From Bdellovibrionota bacterium (lineage in GTDB: Bacteria > Bdellovibrionota_C > UBA2361 > JBIKWN01), in NCBI GenBank assembly GCA_044356295.1, contig JBIKWN010000043.1, forward strand, positions 1 to 20,590: a DNA stretch of 20,590 bases, in the 5' to 3' direction. The first letter of the stretch is position 1; the number at the start of each line of letters is the position of its first letter. Positions 1 to 9,601 of this stretch are shown here, in pieces. Under the pieces are notes generated by a model. It searched no databases. It saw only the letters and a list, made by a program, of their open reading frames with translations, and had not been told where the DNA came from. A program made the translations under genes and the position numbers.

Positions 1-2
1 TT

Positions 3-179
3 TCTTCGATGCATGCAAATTGGATTGTGAATCCAACTAAAAAAGGTAGTGCCCAAGACGTTTTTACCCTTATCGAACTTGCTCAAAATACGGTATTAAC
101 ACAGTGCAAAGTAAAGCTTGTCCCAGAGGTCAAGTTATGGGGATTCTCAGATGTTAAAGGTGTTGTTTCGAACAATTAA
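3..179 (+). CDS. murB: UDP-N-acetylenolpyruvoylglucosamine reductase, 3' end (partial, begins before the window)
   Basis: Manual translation of frame 3 gives SSMHANWIVNPTKKGSAQDVFTLIELAQNTVLTQCKVKLVPEVKLWGFSDVKGVVSNN* (TAA 177-179). This matches the MurB C-terminal pattern S-x-HANFIVN...A-x-DV-xx-LI...L-x-PEV. It also lies in dcw context upstream of ftsQAZ. Confidence 0.9.
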   Translation, partial: SSMHANWIVNPTKKGSAQDVFTLIELAQNTVLTQCKVKLVPEVKLWGFSDVKGVVSNN

Positions 180-196
180 GATAGTTTTTTCAATCA
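62..196 (+). repeat. Direct repeat, left copy (attL-like)
   Basis: 62-171 is identical to 3524-3633 (110 bp, offset 3462). The match continues to 196/3658 with 3 mismatches (positions 172, 173, 180). Confidence 0.97.
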
Positions 197-270
197 CTGT
201 AATATGTAATTGTAACTTTTTTGCGATGAGCTTTCACAGAGCTTCCAACAATAGTGTACATTTTAATTGA
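151..270 (+). pseudogene. Duplicated ftsQ 5' stub created by the left repeat
   Basis: ATG at 151 corresponds to the ftsQ ATG at 3613. It reads MLKVLFRTIKIVFSIT (ftsQ: MLKVLFRVIKIVFSIS), then runs into unrelated sequence to TGA at 268-270. Confidence 0.6.
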
Positions 271-360
271 TTCAAGGACTAAGAAAAATCCTAATGAGAG
301 ATTAAATTCCAAAGCAGTCTAGAAAATCGGTCAGGTACGCGCATTCATGCTCTTTTTGTT

Positions 361-3252
361 CTATTCATTTTCAATCAACAAAGAAACATGTGCATTAATT
401 ATTTCTAACATTCTTTGAGCGACGTGCAAAAATTGTACTGTGACATCCAGTATAGCTTCGCTATCTGAAAGATTGCCTAGTCCTTTCTGAACCGTTTCGC
501 GCAATTGAACAATAGATGCTTTCAGCTCAGGGAGGGAATCTATCAACTTGAATTTAACTTCAGAACTTAAAAAAAGCTTTGCAAGGTAGAGCTGCGCATA
601 GCTGACAATTGGTTTTATTAGTGCTGGATCGGTGATTGTTTCTGATAACTCCAACGCCTTGATCATTTCAGTTCCGATGCTAATTGTTTCTTCATCGTTG
701 GATTTTTTTGAAAGGAGTGCAAGCTTTCGTATTTTCAAAAACACTTCTTGGCTATGTGCAAATGGCTCAAAGGAAAAATTGTTGTTATCAATTTCATGTA
801 TTGGTTCAGAAATTTTTTCAGCAAACAAAAAAACAGTCTGCTTTGTCGAAGCTTTGACTTTTGCCCTGAGTGACGGTGTTAAAGCTTCAAGTGCTATCCT
901 ATCAAGAGTCAATTGCGCGTTTGAAGGTGCTCGTAATCGAAATCCACAATTTTCAAGCTCTGCAATGAATGATTCTGAGAACACTCTTTGTTCGGCTTTC
1001 ATCCAAAGTATTCCTCCTTTTTGCAACACTCGCGCTGATTCCTCGATATAATGTCCGATTGTTTTGCTGTCTAAGTGATAAGGAGTCGAAATTTCTACTA
1101 CTGCAACACTCCCACTTTTTAAAGGAATGTTGAATGCATCCGCCAAGACTCGTCTTGGATTTTTGGATAACTCAAGCATACCCAATGAGGAATCAATATC
1201 AACAACTGTAGGAATGCTGTAGTTATTTAGTTTGAAATTCAAAGTAGCTTCTTCAACAGCTTCGAATAAAGTTCCCGGACCAGAACCTAGGGAAAGAAAC
1301 ACCGGATTCTTTCCCCAAACTCCAAAGTTTTCGGGAAATGAATTCATAACAAAGGAAAGACCAAGCCTTGTGGTAAACCAAGTTGAAAGGTGTGAAACGA
1401 ACTCACTGTAAGTTTGAGCCAATTTGGACCAAGACTCAGGGTGAGACGCCCTTCCCAATGCGAGACGAAGCATATCTATGGGAAGTAAAGGTCTTTGTTC
1501 AGCATCTCTTCGTCCTTTAGGTTCGACAAGATGTGTATATGAGCCAACATTATAAACTGAGCCAGCCCTTCTAAAAATAAATTCAGCACCTTTAAATCCT
1601 GGTCCAACTGCTTTTTCACGATCAAGCATAGAATCCACTGGATGAGGAATACTCTCATTAGTCACGACACGCAAAGAATTAGGGATGAGAGCTCCATACG
1701 CAAAGGAAGCAGTTCCGATTTTATGACGATTAGCATCTGAAAAACGGCAAGAAAGCCCAAAAAAAGCTAACTTTCCATATGGTCCGATAGGTCCAGTAAT
1801 TTCGAAATGCTCGCAATTTCTGATTGCATTTGTGACTATCCTTCCTTCTAACGACTGTCGGCCCTCTTCGCCGAGACGCAGATGAAGTGACCCATCATTT
1901 GTACGAATATACCAATCTTGTGAGCCCTTATTTTCAGGATCTTTTTCCAAGAATAACAAAAGTGCCTCGATTGCAGTGAGGTCAGTGCTTACTTCTTTTC
2001 CTGAAATTCTATATTCAACCTTCGGCTGTTTTTTTTCCGTGAGATGATAAGGGTGAAGCAGTTCCTGTGAGGAAACGGCAAACGCCCCCTGGGCATCTTT
2101 TTTCCAGTGAACCCGAATTATTTGGTCAGTAAATCGGGGGGTCACTGAGCCTTTTAACCCTAAGACTGCTTGGGGTGCATATGCACTTTTTGCAGGCGCT
2201 TCAATGACAAGAGTTTCGGCTTCATGTAAGCAAGACATTGCAATCTGGTACGACATAGATCCAGACGTTTCCGTTGTAGCGATGAGATAAGATTTATCAT
2301 TGTATATAATTCGTGCAAAGTCTCGATCGAGCTGTTCATTATTTTCAAATGCTAAATTTGAGAGAGCTTCTTCAAGTGTCAATTCGGTTTTAAAATCTCG
2401 CGTATTTTCACAATCAAGAATAATAAGTGCTTTTCTTTTACCATCTGGATAGAGATAGTTATCAGAAAGTATACGCGCTTCGATTGGTTTATGGCTGCCG
2501 TTACTTTGTTTCTTGAATGTAACTTCAACAGGCTGCCCTGCATATACACGCGAAGCATGCCATTTCACACCAAATGCTTCCAAGCTTCCTCCAATAGTCA
2601 GTTCTGATTCAATTGAGAAAGTGTCTAGTCTCGAAAGTTTTTCAGCTAAATAACGACTTGGACGATTTACCTTTCGTGGAATTGCCGTCTCAAACGAACT
2701 TCCTCTATATCTAATTGTGGCTGGTTTAGATCCAGGCATGTCTCGCAAAAGTCGTCCAAGTTCCATCATGGAAAGATGACTTTGATATGTTTGTAGCTCA
2801 AAGTTGATTGTTTCTTCTTTTCTTGGCTGGCCCAAAGCATCTGTAAGAATAGAAGAATAAATAATTACTTCCGCAGGCTGTAGTGTATCGTCCATTCCTT
2901 TTTTTAAATTCAAAAGTACCTGGCGAGACTCTGATGATTTGCCTGTTTTTACGCTAAAGCCGAATATATGAATAGCCTCCGATTGGCTCGGCTGCTCTAG
3001 AATGATAGAAATTTCAGAGAGTGTGGCGATAAATTTCTTAAGTGCAGCATCCCAGTTATTAGGATGACCACTAGGAGGTCGTAGTTGAAACGTATTTTGA
3101 CCAATTAGAAGCGTTACCGAACGCTCTCTTTCCTCATAATGAGGTGACGCTTCTATTTGTCTGATGATAAAGCGAATATCATGGAGCAGTTTTTCAGGAT
3201 TTTCTGGGTCTTTGAATACTGAATCACTATGAAGTTGGGCGGATTGGAGCAT
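361..3252 (-). CDS. Large hypothetical protein: N-terminal tandem degenerate ~130-aa repeats plus a class I SAM-dependent methyltransferase domain
   Basis: 965-aa ORF (TTG 3258; first ATG 3252). Aa ~650-775 carry MTase motif I FLSLGSGPG, the acidic motif VVDIDSSLGML, then ADAFNIPLKSGSV and ESARVLQKGG, as in Methyltransf_11-like domains. Confidence 0.8.
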   Translation of the reverse strand: MLQSAQLHSDSVFKDPENPEKLLHDIRFIIRQIEASPHYEERERSVTLLIGQNTFQLRPPSGHPNNWDAALKKFIATLSEISIILEQPSQSEAIHIFGFSVKTGKSSESRQVLLNLKKGMDDTLQPAEVIIYSSILTDALGQPRKEETINFELQTYQSHLSMMELGRLLRDMPGSKPATIRYRGSSFETAIPRKVNRPSRYLAEKLSRLDTFSIESELTIGGSLEAFGVKWHASRVYAGQPVEVTFKKQSNGSHKPIEARILSDNYLYPDGKRKALIILDCENTRDFKTELTLEEALSNLAFENNEQLDRDFARIIYNDKSYLIATTETSGSMSYQIAMSCLHEAETLVIEAPAKSAYAPQAVLGLKGSVTPRFTDQIIRVHWKKDAQGAFAVSSQELLHPYHLTEKKQPKVEYRISGKEVSTDLTAIEALLLFLEKDPENKGSQDWYIRTNDGSLHLRLGEEGRQSLEGRIVTNAIRNCEHFEITGPIGPYGKLAFFGLSCRFSDANRHKIGTASFAYGALIPNSLRVVTNESIPHPVDSMLDREKAVGPGFKGAEFIFRRAGSVYNVGSYTHLVEPKGRRDAEQRPLLPIDMLRLALGRASHPESWSKLAQTYSEFVSHLSTWFTTRLGLSFVMNSFPENFGVWGKNPVFLSLGSGPGTLFEAVEEATLNFKLNNYSIPTVVDIDSSLGMLELSKNPRRVLADAFNIPLKSGSVAVVEISTPYHLDSKTIGHYIEESARVLQKGGILWMKAEQRVFSESFIAELENCGFRLRAPSNAQLTLDRIALEALTPSLRAKVKASTKQTVFLFAEKISEPIHEIDNNNFSFEPFAHSQEVFLKIRKLALLSKKSNDEETISIGTEMIKALELSETITDPALIKPIVSYAQLYLAKLFLSSEVKFKLIDSLPELKASIVQLRETVQKGLGNLSDSEAILDVTVQFLHVAQRMLEIINAHVSLLIENE

Positions 3253-3260
3253 CAACAATT

Positions 3261-3269
3261 ATTATATCA
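3261..3269 (-). promoter_or_regulatory. Putative extended -10 promoter (TGnTATAAT) of the islet ORF
   Basis: The minus strand reads TGATATAAT, a perfect extended -10 consensus, ending 8 nt upstream of the ATG at 3252. There is no room for an SD between them. Confidence 0.45.
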
Positions 3270-3523
3270 GGTTAGTATCCTTAACATAGTTTATGAGACA
3301 GTAGGTTTGGCTGTATGGCTCTTGGTCCTCATCGAGTATCACGACCTGGCGGGAGTAGTCAGGAATACGTGGCGGTGTAAGTTGGAATAGCTTGAGATTT
3401 CATTATTTTCTTAGTCTCAAGAGTATCAATAAGAAATGATAGGATGCGCATTTTAGATTTACGCTTGGATCACTCGATAAGGTAGTGCTCATAATTAGAT
3501 TAATACACCTTACCAAGGCAGCA

Positions 3524-3658
3524 TTTTACCCTTATCGAACTTGCTCAAAATACGGTATTAACACAGTGCAAAGTAAAGCTTGTCCCAGAGGTCAAGTTAT
3601 GGGGATTCTCAGATGTTAAAGGTGTTGTTTCGAGTAATTAAAATAGTTTTTTCAATCA
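3524..3658 (+). repeat. Direct repeat, right copy (attR-like); contains a second copy of the murB 3' end and the true ftsQ start
   Basis: Matches 62-196. In the murB frame it still ends ...VVSSN*. Confidence 0.97.
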
Positions 3659-4494
3659 GTATCGTTGCAGCTGCAACGGTTACAGTGATTTCTTATGTAA
3701 ATCCAGAACTTCTAGTTCGTTCTGGAATAAACGTTTATATAAGCAAATTAGAGCGTTTCTATCACCAGGAACTCTATGAACGACGAGTCCTTGTTGAAGG
3801 GCTTCAATCGGTTGAAAAAAATGAAATTGAAGCTTTGATATCGCCATACACAACAAATCTTTCGTTTTGGTTTCAATCAAATGAGATAGTAAAGGTTCTA
3901 AAACAAAATCCATTTGTTGCAGACGCACAGATTACAACTTGTGATGAAGGATTTTTGACCCGTTGTTTCCGTATCTCTATTGAAGAAAGAGCACCGCGCT
4001 TTATTCACTTGAAGGGTCCCGATGCACTGCTTCTTGCAGAGGACGGAGTAACAATTGCTGTTGTTCCAAGCAGCGAGCTGATCCCATCACTTGAGCGTAT
4101 GCTCGTACCGCAGGCGCCGAGACCTAAGATTATCGCCGGTGTCATAACGAACGATGCAAGTACCGATCAATTTCGTGCACGATTTGAATATGTGAAAGAA
4201 AGTTTTGACATGCTTGAAAAGTTATCTGGCTTTCAGTTCTCTAGACTTGAGCTGTTACCCAATGGGGAGTTGTTGGCGAAACCCTCAAAAGCGCAGTTTG
4301 TAGTGCAATTTGATAAAAGTTGGGGAGATCCAAAAGCATTTGCAGAAGAAGTTTCTCGTTTAAAACTTCTTCTTCCTGAAATAAATGACAGACTCCAGGA
4401 AGTTGAAAAGATTGATCTGGCCTATAACAAACTGGCAGTTGTTAGTTATAAAACTTCACAAGTTACTCCAACACCGAAGCCCTTAAAAAAATAG
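3613..4494 (+). CDS. ftsQ: Cell division protein FtsQ/DivIB
   Basis: N-terminal TM helix (VIKIVFSISIVAAATVTVISYV), POTRA-like segment (VLVEGLQSV...LKQNPFVADAQI...ISIEERAP) and C-terminal KIDLAY motif. It lies directly upstream of ftsA. ATG 3613 is preferred over the track's TTG 3580. Confidence 0.85.
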   Translation: MLKVLFRVIKIVFSISIVAAATVTVISYVNPELLVRSGINVYISKLERFYHQELYERRVLVEGLQSVEKNEIEALISPYTTNLSFWFQSNEIVKVLKQNPFVADAQITTCDEGFLTRCFRISIEERAPRFIHLKGPDALLLAEDGVTIAVVPSSELIPSLERMLVPQAPRPKIIAGVITNDASTDQFRARFEYVKESFDMLEKLSGFQFSRLELLPNGELLAKPSKAQFVVQFDKSWGDPKAFAEEVSRLKLLLPEINDRLQEVEKIDLAYNKLAVVSYKTSQVTPTPKPLKK

Positions 4495-4535
4495 CCCCTT
4501 GCCCTGGTTACAAACTCTGTTTAATTTTGAAGTAT

Positions 4536-5765
4536 ATGGCTAGTCAACCTCATATTATCGCAGCCCTTGATATTGGAACTTTTCAAACAAAGATCGTCAT
4601 AGCAGATGTTACCGATCCATCAAGACATGAAGTTATTGGTGTTGGTGTAACTCCGTCTCGAGGAATGAGAAAAGGAGTTGTGATTCATATTGATAATACC
4701 GTTGCCGCAATTGAGCATGCATTGAAACAAGCTGAGTCGATGGCAGGCGTTGAAGTATCATCCGTATATTGTTCACTCTCAGGGAGCCACATTAAAGGTT
4801 TATCGAGTAACGGTGTCGTTGGAATTAAAAATAAAGAAGTACGAGCTGATGATATCGAAAGAGTTATTGAAGCTGCTAAAGCAGTTGCAATACCGATGGA
4901 TAGAGAGGTGCTGCATGTACTGCCGCAAGAATTTATTGTTGATGATCAAGATTCAATTAAAGACCCGATTGGTATAAACGGCGTACGACTTGAAGCACGT
5001 GTTCATATTGTCACTGGTGCAGTTGCAAGTGCTGAAAATATTGTTAAATGTGCAAACAGATGTGGTTTAACTGTCAATGACGTAGTGAGTGCAGGTATCG
5101 CTTCTGGAAGAGCTGTTGTTACTGATGAAGAGCAAGATCTTGGAGTATGCGTAATCGATATCGGTGGAGGCACTACCGATGTAACAGTTTTTCATCATGG
5201 TGCAGTAAAGCATTCATTTGTTTTGCCAGTTGGTGGAACTCATATTTCTAATGACATTGCTTCTGTGCTTAGTACTCCGATTGAAGCTGCCGATGAACTT
5301 AAATGTTTGCATGGTTGCGCTATGTCATCTTTGGTAAGGTTAAACGATACAGTTTCTGTTGTTTCTACAGGTGGTCGTGAAGACAGAGTAATTTCAAGAC
5401 AATTTTTGGCAGAAATTATTGAGCCCCGATTAACTGAAATATTCCAAGTAGTCATTGGAGAGCTCATCAATGCGAAAGCTGACCAATTAATAAGAAGCGG
5501 CATTATCCTTACTGGAGGAGTAGCAAATCAAAATGGGATAGCTGAGCTTGCAGAAAGCGTATTTAGCGCTCCTGTCCGAATCGGTTTACCAAGAGGAGCC
5601 CATGGCTTGTCAGACCTAATTCAAGACCCTTCACATGCTGCTAGTTTTGGCCTCATTCTTTACGGGGAAGCTACAAAAAGTACCTCTCGAGCCGTATATG
5701 GCAGGTCTAATTTCATATCAAAGTCGATGAAGAAGGTAGCAAACTGGTTCGGGGAACATTTTTAG
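4536..5765 (+). CDS. ftsA: Cell division protein FtsA
   Basis: ALDIGTFQTK and VIDIGGGTTD phosphate loops, ILTGG, VRLEARVHIVTG, and the C-terminal amphipathic helix KKVANWFGEHF. ATG at 4536. Confidence 0.97.
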   Translation: MASQPHIIAALDIGTFQTKIVIADVTDPSRHEVIGVGVTPSRGMRKGVVIHIDNTVAAIEHALKQAESMAGVEVSSVYCSLSGSHIKGLSSNGVVGIKNKEVRADDIERVIEAAKAVAIPMDREVLHVLPQEFIVDDQDSIKDPIGINGVRLEARVHIVTGAVASAENIVKCANRCGLTVNDVVSAGIASGRAVVTDEEQDLGVCVIDIGGGTTDVTVFHHGAVKHSFVLPVGGTHISNDIASVLSTPIEAADELKCLHGCAMSSLVRLNDTVSVVSTGGREDRVISRQFLAEIIEPRLTEIFQVVIGELINAKADQLIRSGIILTGGVANQNGIAELAESVFSAPVRIGLPRGAHGLSDLIQDPSHAASFGLILYGEATKSTSRAVYGRSNFISKSMKKVANWFGEHF

Positions 5766-5968
5766 GATAGTATCCCTTCACAAATTCCGAGAACACGAAT
5801 TTTTTGCGGTTTAAACTATTATTGGGGACTCTTTTACTGCTTTAATGACGCCAAACCACAATTAGCTTTACTTTGAACTAAAATTAGTTTAAGTAACCTA
5901 AAGTAACAGTGTTTTTTAAATGCGAGTTTTTTTAATACAAGATTTTTTTAGAACAAAGGTAGAAATCA

Positions 5969-7183
5969 ATGACAACTGAAGCTGGTAAAAAGCACCATCC
6001 TAATACTGCAAACATTAAGGTATTTGGAATTGGTGGAGCTGGAATTAATGCCGTAAATAATATGATCAAAGGCGGACTCTCAGGAGTTGAGTTCTTTGCC
6101 GCAAATACGGATTCACAGGCTCTTTCGTCATGTGAAGCAAAAAACAAAATTCAATTAGGTGACGAAATTACCAAAGGTCTTGGTGCTGGTGCTGACCCTG
6201 ATGTTGGTTATGCTGCTGCCCGTGAAAGTCTTGAGACAATCCGTAAATCGCTACAAGGCGCTGACATGGTGTTCATCACTGCTGGTATGGGTGGTGGTAC
6301 TGGAACACTTGGTGCTTCTGTTGTTGCAGAAGTTGCAAAAGAACTAGGATGTTTAACAGTCGGTGTTGTTACAAAACCTTTCCTATTTGAAGGAAAGCGT
6401 CGAATGAAAAATGCAGAGCGAGGTATTGATGAGCTCCGCAAACAAGTCGACACACTGATTACTATTCCAAACCAAAGACTTCTTTCAATCGCAGGAAGAA
6501 ACACATCTCTTCTCGACACGTTCAGAAGAGCTGATGACATTCTTTATCAAGCCGTAAAAGGAATCTCTGATCTTATTACCTACGAAGGTCTTGTTAACGT
6601 CGACTTTGCTGACGTACGTGCAGTTATGTCTGAAATGGGCATGGCGATGATGGGTACTGGTGATTCTTCTGGCGAGAATAGAGCTGTTGAAGCTGCTCAG
6701 AAAGCAGTGTCATCACCACTTCTCGAGGATATCTCAATTCATGGTGCACGCGGAGTTCTTATTAACTTCACTGCTTCAAGAGATGTAACTTTACAGGAAG
6801 TTAACGAAGCGGCAGAACTAATTCATTCTGAAGCTCATGAAGATGCAAACATCATCTGGGGAATGGTTATCGATCCACAGCTTGAAGACAGAGTGCAAGT
6901 TACAGTGATTGCAACTGGATTCGGTGATCGTGATGCGGTTACTCCTGGCGCAACTTTTTCGTCAGCAGTTCCTACCTCTACGACTTCGCAACTATCGACT
7001 TATTCAACGACACAAGCTGCTGCACCAACTGCAAGCCTTGCTGCTTCAGTTGAGCAATCAACATTTGGTAAAAAATCAGCGCAATCCGATGTTATTAAGC
7101 TCAAAAAACTCTCTGTCATGGCGAGTGCTGAAGATGAAGATAAGTTTGATATCCCAACCTTCTTAAGAAGAGGGGCAGAGTAA
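5969..7183 (+). CDS. ftsZ: Cell division protein FtsZ
   Basis: Tubulin signature [30 protein letters not shown]7 loop, and C-terminal core peptide DIPTFLRR. Confidence 0.99.
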
Positions 7184-7402: not shown

Positions 7403-9400
7403 ATGATTCCTCGTTTTTATAGAATAATTTTTCTTTCTACCATTATAGTTTCTTGCACTTTGCCTACATTTGCAGAGAGAAGACTAGGCGAGATGAGTCT
7501 TGAAGAATTAATGAACGTTAAGGTTTCGATAGCATCTGGAAAAGAAGTTGATATCCGTTCTGCACCAGGGATTGTAAGCGTTATCACTGAAGAAGAGATT
7601 AAGGCGTTAGGTGCGAGAGATTTTATTGATATCCTCAATCAAATTCCAGGATTTCAATTTGGAGTTGATGTAATTGGAGTTGTCGGTGTTGGCGTTCGTG
7701 GTATCTGGGGGCATGAAGGAAAAATATTGCTGCTCTGGAATGGTCATGAAATGAATGAATTGCTTTATTCAACGCTGCAATTTGGAAACCACTTTCCTGT
7801 AAATTTAATTAAGAAAATTGAGATCATCCGTGGACCCGGATCCGCTCTTTACGGTGGCAATGCTGAACTCTCTGTCATTAATGTCATTACCAAATCAGGT
7901 AGTGACTTAGATGGTGGTGAAGTTTTTGTGAGCTACGGACAGAATAGAGAAACATTTTCGCGGCGTAATATCGAGTTTGCTTACGGCGAACAAGTTGAAG
8001 ATTTCACTTACGATATTTCTGGTATTATGGGAGAGGGAACGAGAAGTTATAAGCAATATACCGATCAAGCAGGTAATAGCTTTGATCTTGCAGAGGACTC
8101 AGAGCTTAATCCTGGAATGCTCATGTTGAATCTTAAAAAAGGGAATTGGGATGCTCGTTTTCTTTATGATGATTATAGGACGAAACAGCGTGATGAATTT
8201 ACGGATATTTTATCTGAAGCAGTTAATGCTGATTTCACCTCTTATTTCTACGACCTAAGATATAATGCAGATATTTCTGACAGTCTTACTCTTATACCAA
8301 GAGTTTTTGTTAAAGATCAGATTCCTTACCGTGCAAACAATAATACCAAACAAGATAACACACCTTTGAATACTCGGGCCCAACGTGCTCAAGGAGAAAT
8401 GATTGCAAAGTACAAGTTAAGTAACTCAACTGATACATTATGGGGAGGACAGGTTTACTCTGATAGAGCCAGAAATTATATTGATGGGGAGTCTTTTGGA
8501 AACGGCAGTCAGTATTTTGATTACAGTGGGCGGGCTTTTTTTGGTCAAGCAATGATGCGATCTGATCTTGCCGATTTTACTGTCGGTGGACGTTATGATG
8601 CGCATAGCATTTTTGATTCTGCATTTGTTCCAAGAGTCTCTGCTACTAAAATAGTAGATAACTGGCACTTTAAACTTTTAGCAAGCTCTGCTTTTAGAAA
8701 TCCTGGAATTCAGAATATTAGTCTTAATCAGGCACTGATTAATGATAATGCTCCAGGAATAGATCCAATCAAAAGGGAAGAAACTACTGTATATGAATTA
8801 GAAACTGGGTACGCTTTTTCTGATAAAACTGTTCTTGTTTTTAACGTATCTCATACTCAGATTGACGACCCAATTGTGTACACGCTTTTGAATGATGGTG
8901 CTCAAGAAGGATATGTTAATGGAGACAAGGTTGCGTCTCTTGGTTTTGAAGCTGAACTAAAGCACAATTTTGATTGGGGTAAAACAGCAATTAGTTATTC
9001 ACACTATGCTGCACAAAATTCCAATGTAGATATTTATGAAGTCCCCAATGATAGTCAGTCTTATTTAGGTTTTGCCCGAGATAAAATAACTGCTTCTGCT
9101 TCTATCAACATGAATGATAGGACTTCACTCACCCCATCCTTGGTATTCCTTGGTTCTCGCTCTGGATATTATCAAATCGATAGTTCCGGAAATTCTGTGT
9201 TGAAAGAATTTGATCCGGTTGTTTTATTGAATGCTTATATTTCACATCGTCTCCAAGGGATTGAAAATCTTGAGCTTGGATTGGGTGTTTATAATATTCT
9301 TGGTCAGAATTTTAGCTTTATACAGCCTGCTAACAATGGTCATGCGCCGTTACCTGGGCTTTCTCCTGAGGTTATGGGTAGAGTTACTTATAGGTTTTGA
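7403..9400 (+). CDS. TonB-dependent outer-membrane receptor
   Basis: Signal-peptide-like N-terminus, SLEELMN...APGIVSVITEEEI plug start, KKIEIIRGPGSALYG plug motif, GVYNILG, and terminal aromatic strand VTYRF. Confidence 0.93.
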   Translation: MIPRFYRIIFLSTIIVSCTLPTFAERRLGEMSLEELMNVKVSIASGKEVDIRSAPGIVSVITEEEIKALGARDFIDILNQIPGFQFGVDVIGVVGVGVRGIWGHEGKILLLWNGHEMNELLYSTLQFGNHFPVNLIKKIEIIRGPGSALYGGNAELSVINVITKSGSDLDGGEVFVSYGQNRETFSRRNIEFAYGEQVEDFTYDISGIMGEGTRSYKQYTDQAGNSFDLAEDSELNPGMLMLNLKKGNWDARFLYDDYRTKQRDEFTDILSEAVNADFTSYFYDLRYNADISDSLTLIPRVFVKDQIPYRANNNTKQDNTPLNTRAQRAQGEMIAKYKLSNSTDTLWGGQVYSDRARNYIDGESFGNGSQYFDYSGRAFFGQAMMRSDLADFTVGGRYDAHSIFDSAFVPRVSATKIVDNWHFKLLASSAFRNPGIQNISLNQALINDNAPGIDPIKREETTVYELETGYAFSDKTVLVFNVSHTQIDDPIVYTLLNDGAQEGYVNGDKVASLGFEAELKHNFDWGKTAISYSHYAAQNSNVDIYEVPNDSQSYLGFARDKITASASINMNDRTSLTPSLVFLGSRSGYYQIDSSGNSVLKEFDPVVLLNAYISHRLQGIENLELGLGVYNILGQNFSFIQPANNGHAPLPGLSPEVMGRVTYRF

Positions 9401-9521: not shown

Positions 9522-9601
9522 TTTAGTAACGCGAAGGTCGCGAAGTACGCGAAGGATTTAATTAGATCCTTCGCGTACTTCGCGACCTTCGCGTTACTAA
9601 A
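9522..9601. repeat. 80-bp palindrome (36-bp perfect arms) built from 9-bp CGCGAAGNN units; REP-like
   Basis: 9522-9557 TTTAGTAACGCGAAGGTCGCGAAGTACGCGAAGGAT is the exact reverse complement of 9566-9601. The centre TTAATTAG is self-complementary except for one T/G pair. Confidence 0.95.

Follow-up and report, generated by a model that had tools for sequence, protein, structure and literature searches.

An apparent single-gene insertion into the murB/ftsQ overlap of a Bdellovibrionota bacterium, bracketed by a duplicate of that overlap

How can a new gene come to lie inside the overlap of two genes, neither of which the cell can presumably spare? This question is raised by a stretch of 20,590 nt from an uncultured lake bacterium of the Bdellovibrionota, referred to below as the window, which makes up the beginning of contig C34 in an assembly (GCA_044356295.1, here G000) of 128 contigs, 2.96 Mb and 93.6% completeness. 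Close to the start of the window, murB is parted from ftsQ, its neighbour in the division and cell wall (dcw) cluster, by an insert of 3,327 nt whose single long open reading frame (ORF) encodes a protein of 965 residues, and the insert is bracketed by two copies of the murB/ftsQ junction. The dcw cluster is among the most conserved bacterial gene orders. Both murB and ftsQ are essential in model bacteria, and we take them as essential here.

A duplicated murB/ftsQ junction and the intact junction of relatives

A repeat search and a pairwise alignment returned the same coordinates as the sequence-only reading of this locus, which had described an exact repeat at 62-171 and 3524-3633 that extends to 196 and 3658 with 3 mismatches. 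The direct repeat is 135 nt long (62-196 and 3524-3658) and forms a two-copy family with 98% identity at a spacing of 3462 nt; no further copies were found in the 2.96-Mb assembly. Its first 110 positions are identical throughout (62-171 vs 3524-3633, 110/110), and 22 of the 25 positions over 172-196 are identical. The only mismatches, at 172, 173 and 180, fall within 9 nt and lie ∼17–25 nt from the distal junction (0/110 and then 3/25). Position 61 differs from 3523 and the likeness is gone beyond 196/3658.

The duplication rescues both genes. The same earlier reading held that the left copy finishes murB and the right copy gives ftsQ its start, and the frames and translations agree with this. 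The murB fragment of the window is 50% identical to residues 257–302 of a MurB from the same genus, and the repeat begins with the last base of the Val codon that occupies 60-62, which is codon 20 of the 58-codon murB stretch. The murB frame of the right copy is shut by three stops just upstream, which leaves a bare 3′ fragment there. Conversely, the ftsQ frame of the left copy soon runs into insert DNA, and 26 of the 39 aligned residues of this remnant are identical to FtsQ. For ftsQ itself an alternative start exists at the ATG at 3613, which has GGGGA before it; the POTRA_1 match of FtsQ reaches 22.2 bits, just short of the 23-bit cut-off in Pfam.

We searched 40 relatives with FtsQ, and 19 fetched loci were then searched with MurB, FtsQ and FtsA. 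In 16 of these 19, murB immediately preceded ftsQ. Among the remaining three, the locus of the closest relative, G002, was ended by a contig end (this assembly is devoid of everything from residue 388 of murC to residue 157 of ftsQ), one had only ∼580 nt upstream, and one had no murB within 1.3 kb. G001, which belongs to the same genus, has the genes in the order murC-murB-ftsQ-ftsA, with the stop of murB falling 80 nt within the frame of ftsQ. Judged by this adjacency in 16 of 19 loci and by the overlap in G001, an overlapping murB/ftsQ junction is the ancestral state and the insertion is the derived one, in line with the earlier description of this DNA as an insertion. Metagenomes added no further allele: a scan with the FtsQ protein gave 203 pattern matches of which 0 were confirmed, so that no contig with an empty site or another cargo was obtained, and a scan with a 27-nt stretch of the repeat gave 0 matches.

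The arrangement could have arisen in two steps, if a short tandem duplication of the murB/ftsQ overlap came first and unrelated DNA entered later between the copies. Short tandem duplications are common, a neutral zone of ∼73 nt (180-196 and 3524-3579) would tolerate insertions, and a second interrupted dcw junction, ftsI|murE, is present in this genome together with three copies of an 81-nt repeat. However, the insert sits exactly at the copy boundary 196|3524, which is unlikely for a random hit in a zone of 73 nt. Two events are also needed where one suffices, and a bare duplication without the insert was not seen in any of the relatives' loci. We consider this sequence of events very unlikely.

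The explanation that we favour, and to which we assign about an even probability, is that the insertion is real and specific to this lineage, and that a single homology-driven or template-switch event placed one accessory gene in the chromosome within the murB/ftsQ overlap. The anatomy, the derived state, the native composition and the lack of mobility genes are observed; for the mechanism, the recency of the event and the transcription of ftsQAZ we infer the following. One recombination event would insert 3.3 kb and at the same time duplicate 135 nt of the target. This might occur by a Campbell-type single crossover of a non-replicating circle that bears a copy of the murB-ftsQ junction, or by a replicative template switch that would leave the target at 196, copy a 3.3-kb segment and re-enter at 62, that is, 135 nt upstream. 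After the insertion murB would end in the left copy, and ftsQ-ftsA-ftsZ would be expressed from the right copy, with their promoter probably in the insert or the repeat. Since murB and ftsQ overlap and both are taken as essential, only an event that duplicates the overlap would leave a viable cell; the long repeat may therefore be a signature of survivorship and need not be an attachment site. Either error-prone synthesis where the template was switched or a mosaic donor would agree with the clustering of mismatches near the junction.

Table 1. Coordinates of the features at the murB/ftsQ locus (positions in the window)
Feature	Position	Strand	Remarks
murB 3′ end	3..179	+	last 58 codons and stop; Pfam MurB_C (E 6.4e-9), tblastn with same-genus MurB, translation
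Left repeat copy	62..196	+	last 38 murB codons and stop, then 17 nt more
ftsQ′ remnant ORF	118..270	+	50 residues; the first ∼26 match the FtsQ N-terminus, then insert DNA
Non-coding left insert end	197..360		from murB stop region to 3′ end of the 965-residue gene
965-residue gene, sole gene of the insert	361..3258	-	N-terminal beta-rich modules, predicted class I S-adenosylmethionine (SAM)-methyltransferase fold at about residues 589–833, helical tail
Non-coding right insert end	3259..3523		upstream of the 965-residue gene and of the right repeat
Conserved non-coding element	3351..3500	+	like the murE-upstream copy C48:14-111 (= C89:11930-12027) and G002 C63:7973-8064 (L042:1501-1592)
Right repeat copy	3524..3658	+	dead murB 3′ fragment (38 codons and stop) plus live ftsQ ribosome-binding region and start
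ftsQ	3580..4494	+	304 residues from TTG at 3580; POTRA_1 match; orthologues in 39 of 40 relatives
ftsA and ftsZ	4527..7183	+	undisturbed continuation of the dcw cluster

Phasing of the insert in the assembly and in public metagenomes

The 14 contig-end overlaps in the assembly (7 contig pairs, both orientations) are all exactly 127 nt long, from which we infer a final assembly k of 127. As this k is larger than the exact repeat of 110 nt, the path from the murB arm through the repeat to the A at 172 needs 127-mers that are unique to the integrated form. On these grounds, the integrated arrangement is probably real. The rival possibility is a mis-phased assembly, in which an intact chromosomal murB-ftsQ and a separate 3,462-bp circle (or a tandem array), carrying the 965-residue gene and a 135-nt copy of the junction, were threaded together.

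The evidence from public runs consists of contigs assembled with k=31, and with this k the integrated form looks the same as the combination of an empty site with a 3,462-bp circle. The runs that hold the locus are lake and freshwater metagenomes; X1 is possibly the source sample, X2 comes from another study and year, and X3 and X4 hold only scattered pieces at ∼2x depth. In X1, the insert forms one contig of 3,492 nt (142-3633; 3462 + 30) whose two ends share a 30-mer, and a second contig runs from 3604. In X2, 13 of 13 contigs are at least 99% identical; contigs again begin at 142 and 3604, in the 3′ end of the repeat, and they also cover the sequence past the left end of the insert. As an independent sample that holds the insert, X2 speaks for a real arrangement.

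Several observations weigh against the explanation that we favour. Its phasing leans on the inferred k of 127 and not on counted junction reads, and the contig of this metagenome-assembled genome opens only 61 nt ahead of the left repeat. The 3,492-nt contig of X1 is equally expected from a free 3,462-bp circle; it continues without a break past the point at which the murB arm would join the repeat, and positions 1-141 are wholly uncovered in X1. In X2, the length-weighted depth is ∼4.6 over the seven insert contigs listed vs 7.13 over the ftsQ flank; this may mean that some cells are without the insert, as with an element that comes and goes, or it may be low-depth noise. An intragenomic template switch calls for a donor, and no donor copy of the 965-residue gene was found in the 93.6%-complete assembly. 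Lastly, the 110 nt without a mismatch need not mean that the event is recent, as gene conversion could have produced them.

The pattern in X1 can, on the other hand, be read as a loop in the k=31 graph from which a short murB arm was clipped as a tip, and a gap of coverage inside murB would have this effect. The 5′ part of murB (residues 2–193 on the scale of the same-genus protein) lies at the end of contig C5, behind murC, and ∼63 codons are unassembled. The same gap that ends C5 would thus reduce the murB arm in X1 to a short tip, which would hence be missing. Moreover, the depths of insert and ftsQ flank are near equal in X1 (9.75 vs 8.64), and the two variants of the distal 25 nt of the repeat mean that two copies exist in any case. 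We therefore regard the mis-phasing of two separate molecules as improbable.

Cargo, composition and mobility functions

The 965-residue gene is convergent with murB and divergent from ftsQ, and apart from ORFs nested within it the insert has no other ORF of at least 50 residues. Methyltransf_11 at residues 657–752 is the only Pfam domain of its product, and this match is borderline (22.0 bits vs a cut-off of 21.2 bits). The AlphaFold model has a mean predicted local distance difference test score of 69.3 and is confident at about residues 110–300 and 600–965. Foldseek aligned it to many methyltransferases at E values of 1.4e-7 and below, and VIA-align superposed residues 589–833 on 2zfu_B with a Z score of 18.2 and a root mean square deviation of 3.2 over 192 aligned residues. 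In the glycine-rich loop, S656, G660 and G662 do not vary among 9 sequences. According to the model, the protein has a class I SAM-methyltransferase fold (Rossmann-like and seven-stranded, with a glycine-rich SAM loop), and methyl transfer is its predicted activity. Residues 1–560 found no usable match in a protein atlas, NCBIfam and PHROGs gave no match to the protein, a word-index protein search returned only the protein itself, and PADLOC gave one weak match, to mad2 (E 0.0046).

The family is small. An HMMER search among 1.84 billion representatives gave 70 proteins at E≤1e-3 and 4 at E≤1e-30 including the query; the best non-self homologue is unnamed and 32% identical, and no close relative is characterised. 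The matches mostly span residues 590–900, and a few also cover residues 31–390. Among 22 homologues that were scanned, 9 score above the Methyltransf_11 cut-off, and two remote members have helicase domains fused to them. Homologues were found in 3 of the 90 other genomes of the order and, as distant ones, in 3 of the 123 other genomes of the phylum. The G013 homologue precedes a sulfatase gene and adjoins an ORF that overlaps a FlgO-like gene, that of G007 adjoins a Lon-like gene, and that of G072 is on a short contig. No flanking repeats were found at the loci in G013 and G072, and a coding duplication was found at none of the three. In G007, a 120-nt repeat pair (C19:30368-30487 and 32646-32765; L034:6369-6488 and 8647-8766) flanks the Lon-like AAA+ gene, upstream of the cargo homologue of 1011 residues. 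As a candidate coding duplication this pair was rejected, being a dispersed palindromic element for which that genome has 5 matches, of which two are weak.

The composition of the insert is native to the host. Its tetranucleotide distance to the genome mean ranks at the 44th percentile among 826 equally sized windows, and its GC content is 0.399 vs a genome median of 0.387. The non-coding ends differ in what they hold. At the left end (197..360), no terminator-like site and no likeness elsewhere in the genome were found. The right end contains the best promoter-like site of the region (3429-3402, minus strand) and a conserved element of ∼100–150 nt. Positions 3351-3500 of the window are 76–82% identical to the element that lies directly upstream of murE in the same genome, and the element is 76–84% identical between species whose FtsQ proteins are 36–73% identical. 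By this resemblance to the murE-upstream and G002 elements, at least part of the insert DNA appears native to the genus.

On reading by eye, a hairpin stem of 7 bp in this element differs at two pairs between the copies of G000 with the pairing kept. Consensus folding of 3 sequences only gave -7.08 kcal/mol and one compensatory pair. Rfam has no family for the element, and nothing in 1-3800 matched Rfam at E≤1. A possible upstream extension of the murB homology, between 8-55 on the left and 3442-3491 on the right, reached a gapped local score of 23, which 25 of 2000 shuffles also reached; this is marginal, the stretch is also conserved in the non-dcw element of G002, and we do not rely on it as decayed murB.

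Next, we consider whether the insert moves by itself. Pfam domains of recombinases or transposases were found neither in the 965-residue protein nor in the 11 other large ORFs scanned in the window, MurB, FtsQ and FtsA. The insert is thus without a recombinase, as had been noticed from the sequence; the methyltransferase domain is all that Pfam finds in its protein. No inverted repeats were found at its ends. It differs from an insertion sequence in having neither a transposase nor terminal inverted repeats, and in a duplication of 135 nt, which is not short. The plasmid and phage collections searched had no match to the insert or its cargo, and a scan of viral contigs gave no locus.

The genome itself does have recombinases. 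The search for them, which the sequence-only reading had proposed as a check, gave three genes of the Phage_integrase family (C38, C116 and C18) and one resolvase (C126), all on other contigs. The gene on C38 encodes an integron integrase (TIGR02249, 428.8 bits vs a cut-off of 265 bits), and the other two encode Xer-like tyrosine recombinases. The frame at C126:1082-1501 is that of a resolvase-family serine recombinase with one internal TAG stop. A chromosomal integron occupies about 54,060-64,500 of C38, where an array of classical attC sites (...TAACAAA...AAACGTTA...) comes after the integrase. A profile built from 8 of these C38 sites gave ∼35 attC-like sites on eight contigs of the genome, 29 with E≤1e-4; those beyond C38 are on C125, C51, C128, C69, C15, C25 and C70. 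The profile had no match on C34 at E≤10, and C89 and C48 were also without an attC match. The core motif of attC is RYYYAAC...GTTRRRY, and no such core pair (R″/R′) was found in 1-3800. Both a recombinase and DNA circles could come from this integron.

These findings bear on the proposal, made in the sequence-only reading, that the insert is a minimal integrative cassette with murB as its attB. Under this proposal, 62-196 would be a replacement of the murB 3′ end borne by attP, a host recombinase would act in trans, and a circle of 3,462 bp could be excised. The identity that starts abruptly at 62 and is imperfect at the distal end only is what such a cassette would leave, and the integron integrase, the two Xer-like tyrosine recombinases and the resolvase with its internal stop offer candidates for its mobilisation. 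The lower depth of the insert in X2 could also reflect a presence/absence polymorphism. However, no second element, bracketed copy or ends were found in the genome itself, in 90 genomes of the order, in 123 genomes of the phylum, among plasmids and phages or in two metagenome scans. The ends are neither inverted nor furnished with an attC on which the integron integrase could act, the composition is native and part of the non-coding DNA resembles an element native to the genus, and the cargo homologues are not bracketed by coding duplications. Besides, an element-borne copy of murB would be expected to differ along its whole length, and not at 0/110 and then 3/25 positions. We consider a cassette mobilised in trans unlikely, and the original proposal does not hold up well. 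Its fall-back, a homologous single crossover, fits at least as well as the cassette and gives the topology directly. There is no sign of a self-moving element; the insert looks like the scar of a one-off recombination, from which excision of the 3,462-bp circle by recombination between the repeats is geometrically possible.

The other genes of the window are housekeeping genes: besides ftsA and ftsZ they encode a TonB-dependent receptor, a carboxyltransferase, a methylmalonyl-CoA mutase and enzymes of the pentose-phosphate pathway. No tRNA was found in the window. An 80-nt near-perfect palindrome (97.5% self-complementary) lies at 9522-9601, in the spacer that separates the TonB-dependent receptor gene from the following ORF.

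Parallels, a second interrupted dcw junction and implications

e14 is a 15-kb prophage that has its own integrase and excises on SOS induction. In E. coli K-12, it is described as inserted in icd, where it leaves the 3′ pseudogene icdC, and as able to excise (PMC13626634). The murB/ftsQ insert resembles e14 and phage 21 in lying in the 3′ part of a housekeeping gene, in that its end repeats hold the 3′ end of the target gene and one copy completes it while the displaced 3′ fragment is dead at the other end, and in that a single gene would result if the copies recombined; this is the topology that a cassette would share (PMC13626634). Unlike e14, the insert is 3.3 kb long with one gene, has no recombinase of its own and is native in composition, and its duplicate also bears the start of an overlapping second gene. 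Neither was the same element found at equivalent sites in the genomes searched.

The H47 island of E. coli, which encodes microcin H47, offers the same topology in an element without integrase and excisionase: it is described as having extensive imperfect direct repeats, and mobilisation in trans by host functions is proposed (PMC3191183). Its excision and integration were shown experimentally, also without homologous recombination, and its attachment sites are stated there to be widespread in E. coli (PMC3191183). The murB/ftsQ insert is likewise small, without an integrase and flanked by extensive imperfect direct repeats. Unlike for H47, no second site or second copy was found in the genomes searched, and no excision product was found in the assembly and the k=31 contigs.

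A Campbell-type insertion-duplication would also bracket an insert with a direct duplication of the target without other end features, keep both flanking genes intact and need no recombinase gene, all of which is seen here. Such events are known mainly as a laboratory method. Unlike the typical case, 135 nt is short for a RecA-dependent crossover, and a circle with the junction segment is a hypothetical donor. The integron suggests itself as well, because with an integron integrase and ∼35 attC-like sites in the same genome, single-gene circles would be made in this cell. Unlike an integron cassette, however, the insert is without attC, lies away from the array and is far larger than the cassettes there, and insertion by an integron makes no duplication of 135 nt.

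A second dcw junction is interrupted in this genome. In G002, murE follows ftsI by ∼75 nt (ftsI 87.5% identical), whereas in G000 ∼6.4 kb lie between them (C89:5595-12046, C48:1-146; L053, L054), with two large unknown ORFs of 738 residues (+) and 917 residues (-). On reading, the 917-residue ORF has a HELIH motif. The 81-nt repeat has its three copies in this stretch (C89:5658, 8314 and 11667), and the murE copy of the conserved element forms its downstream end. Two candidate homologies were tried here. The murE-upstream element as a decayed ftsI end is not significant, as 208 of 1000 shuffles reach the score, and the 81-nt repeats as decayed murE starts were not established, as at best 89 of 2000 shuffles reach it.

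Two junctions, of which ftsI|murE is intact in G002 and murB|ftsQ in G001, thus carry large unknown genes on the opposite strand within bounds of direct repeats, and both inserts end, on the side of the downstream dcw gene, in a copy of the same ∼100-nt conserved element. This raises the idea, which we think quite unlikely, that the dcw operon of this lineage is repeatedly colonised by large accessory genes via a recombinase-free route that makes duplications. The conserved element could be a restart promoter or a recombination handle that makes insertions into the dcw cluster viable.

Elsewhere in G000, a 98-nt direct repeat (C23:35209-35306 and 36338-36435, 92% identical) brackets an ORF of 137 residues, and its second copy overlaps the 3′ end of a 489-residue ORF; this may be a second duplication of a gene end around an insertion. 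Dispersed repeats of ∼135–140 nt, 85–97% identical, occur on many contigs (C107:1556-1695, C61:8159-8294, C57:15219-15353, C85:20207-20343, C104:34196-34330, C3:9273-9410), and this family is unrelated to the murB/ftsQ repeat.

The general pattern, an insert without an integrase that is bracketed by a duplicated gene end, is not new, since e14 in icd and the H47 island are precedents. What sets this case apart is its location in the overlap of two genes, both essential in model bacteria, within the most conserved operon of the cell envelope, where the duplicate must serve both. At the level of titles and abstracts, the literature yielded no description of integration at murB/ftsQ and none of an island within the dcw cluster; the sequence-only reading, too, was not aware of murB/ftsQ as such a site. 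Under the single-event explanation that we favour, even junctions of the murB/ftsQ type can accept new genes, provided that the event duplicates the overlap. The locus would then be a natural example of a long repeat that resembles an attachment site and yet stems from selection for viability, not from a site-specific recombinase, and this bears on how integrase-less islets bracketed by gene ends are read. If the insert is polymorphic or excisable, it would constitute a natural switch immediately upstream of ftsQAZ.

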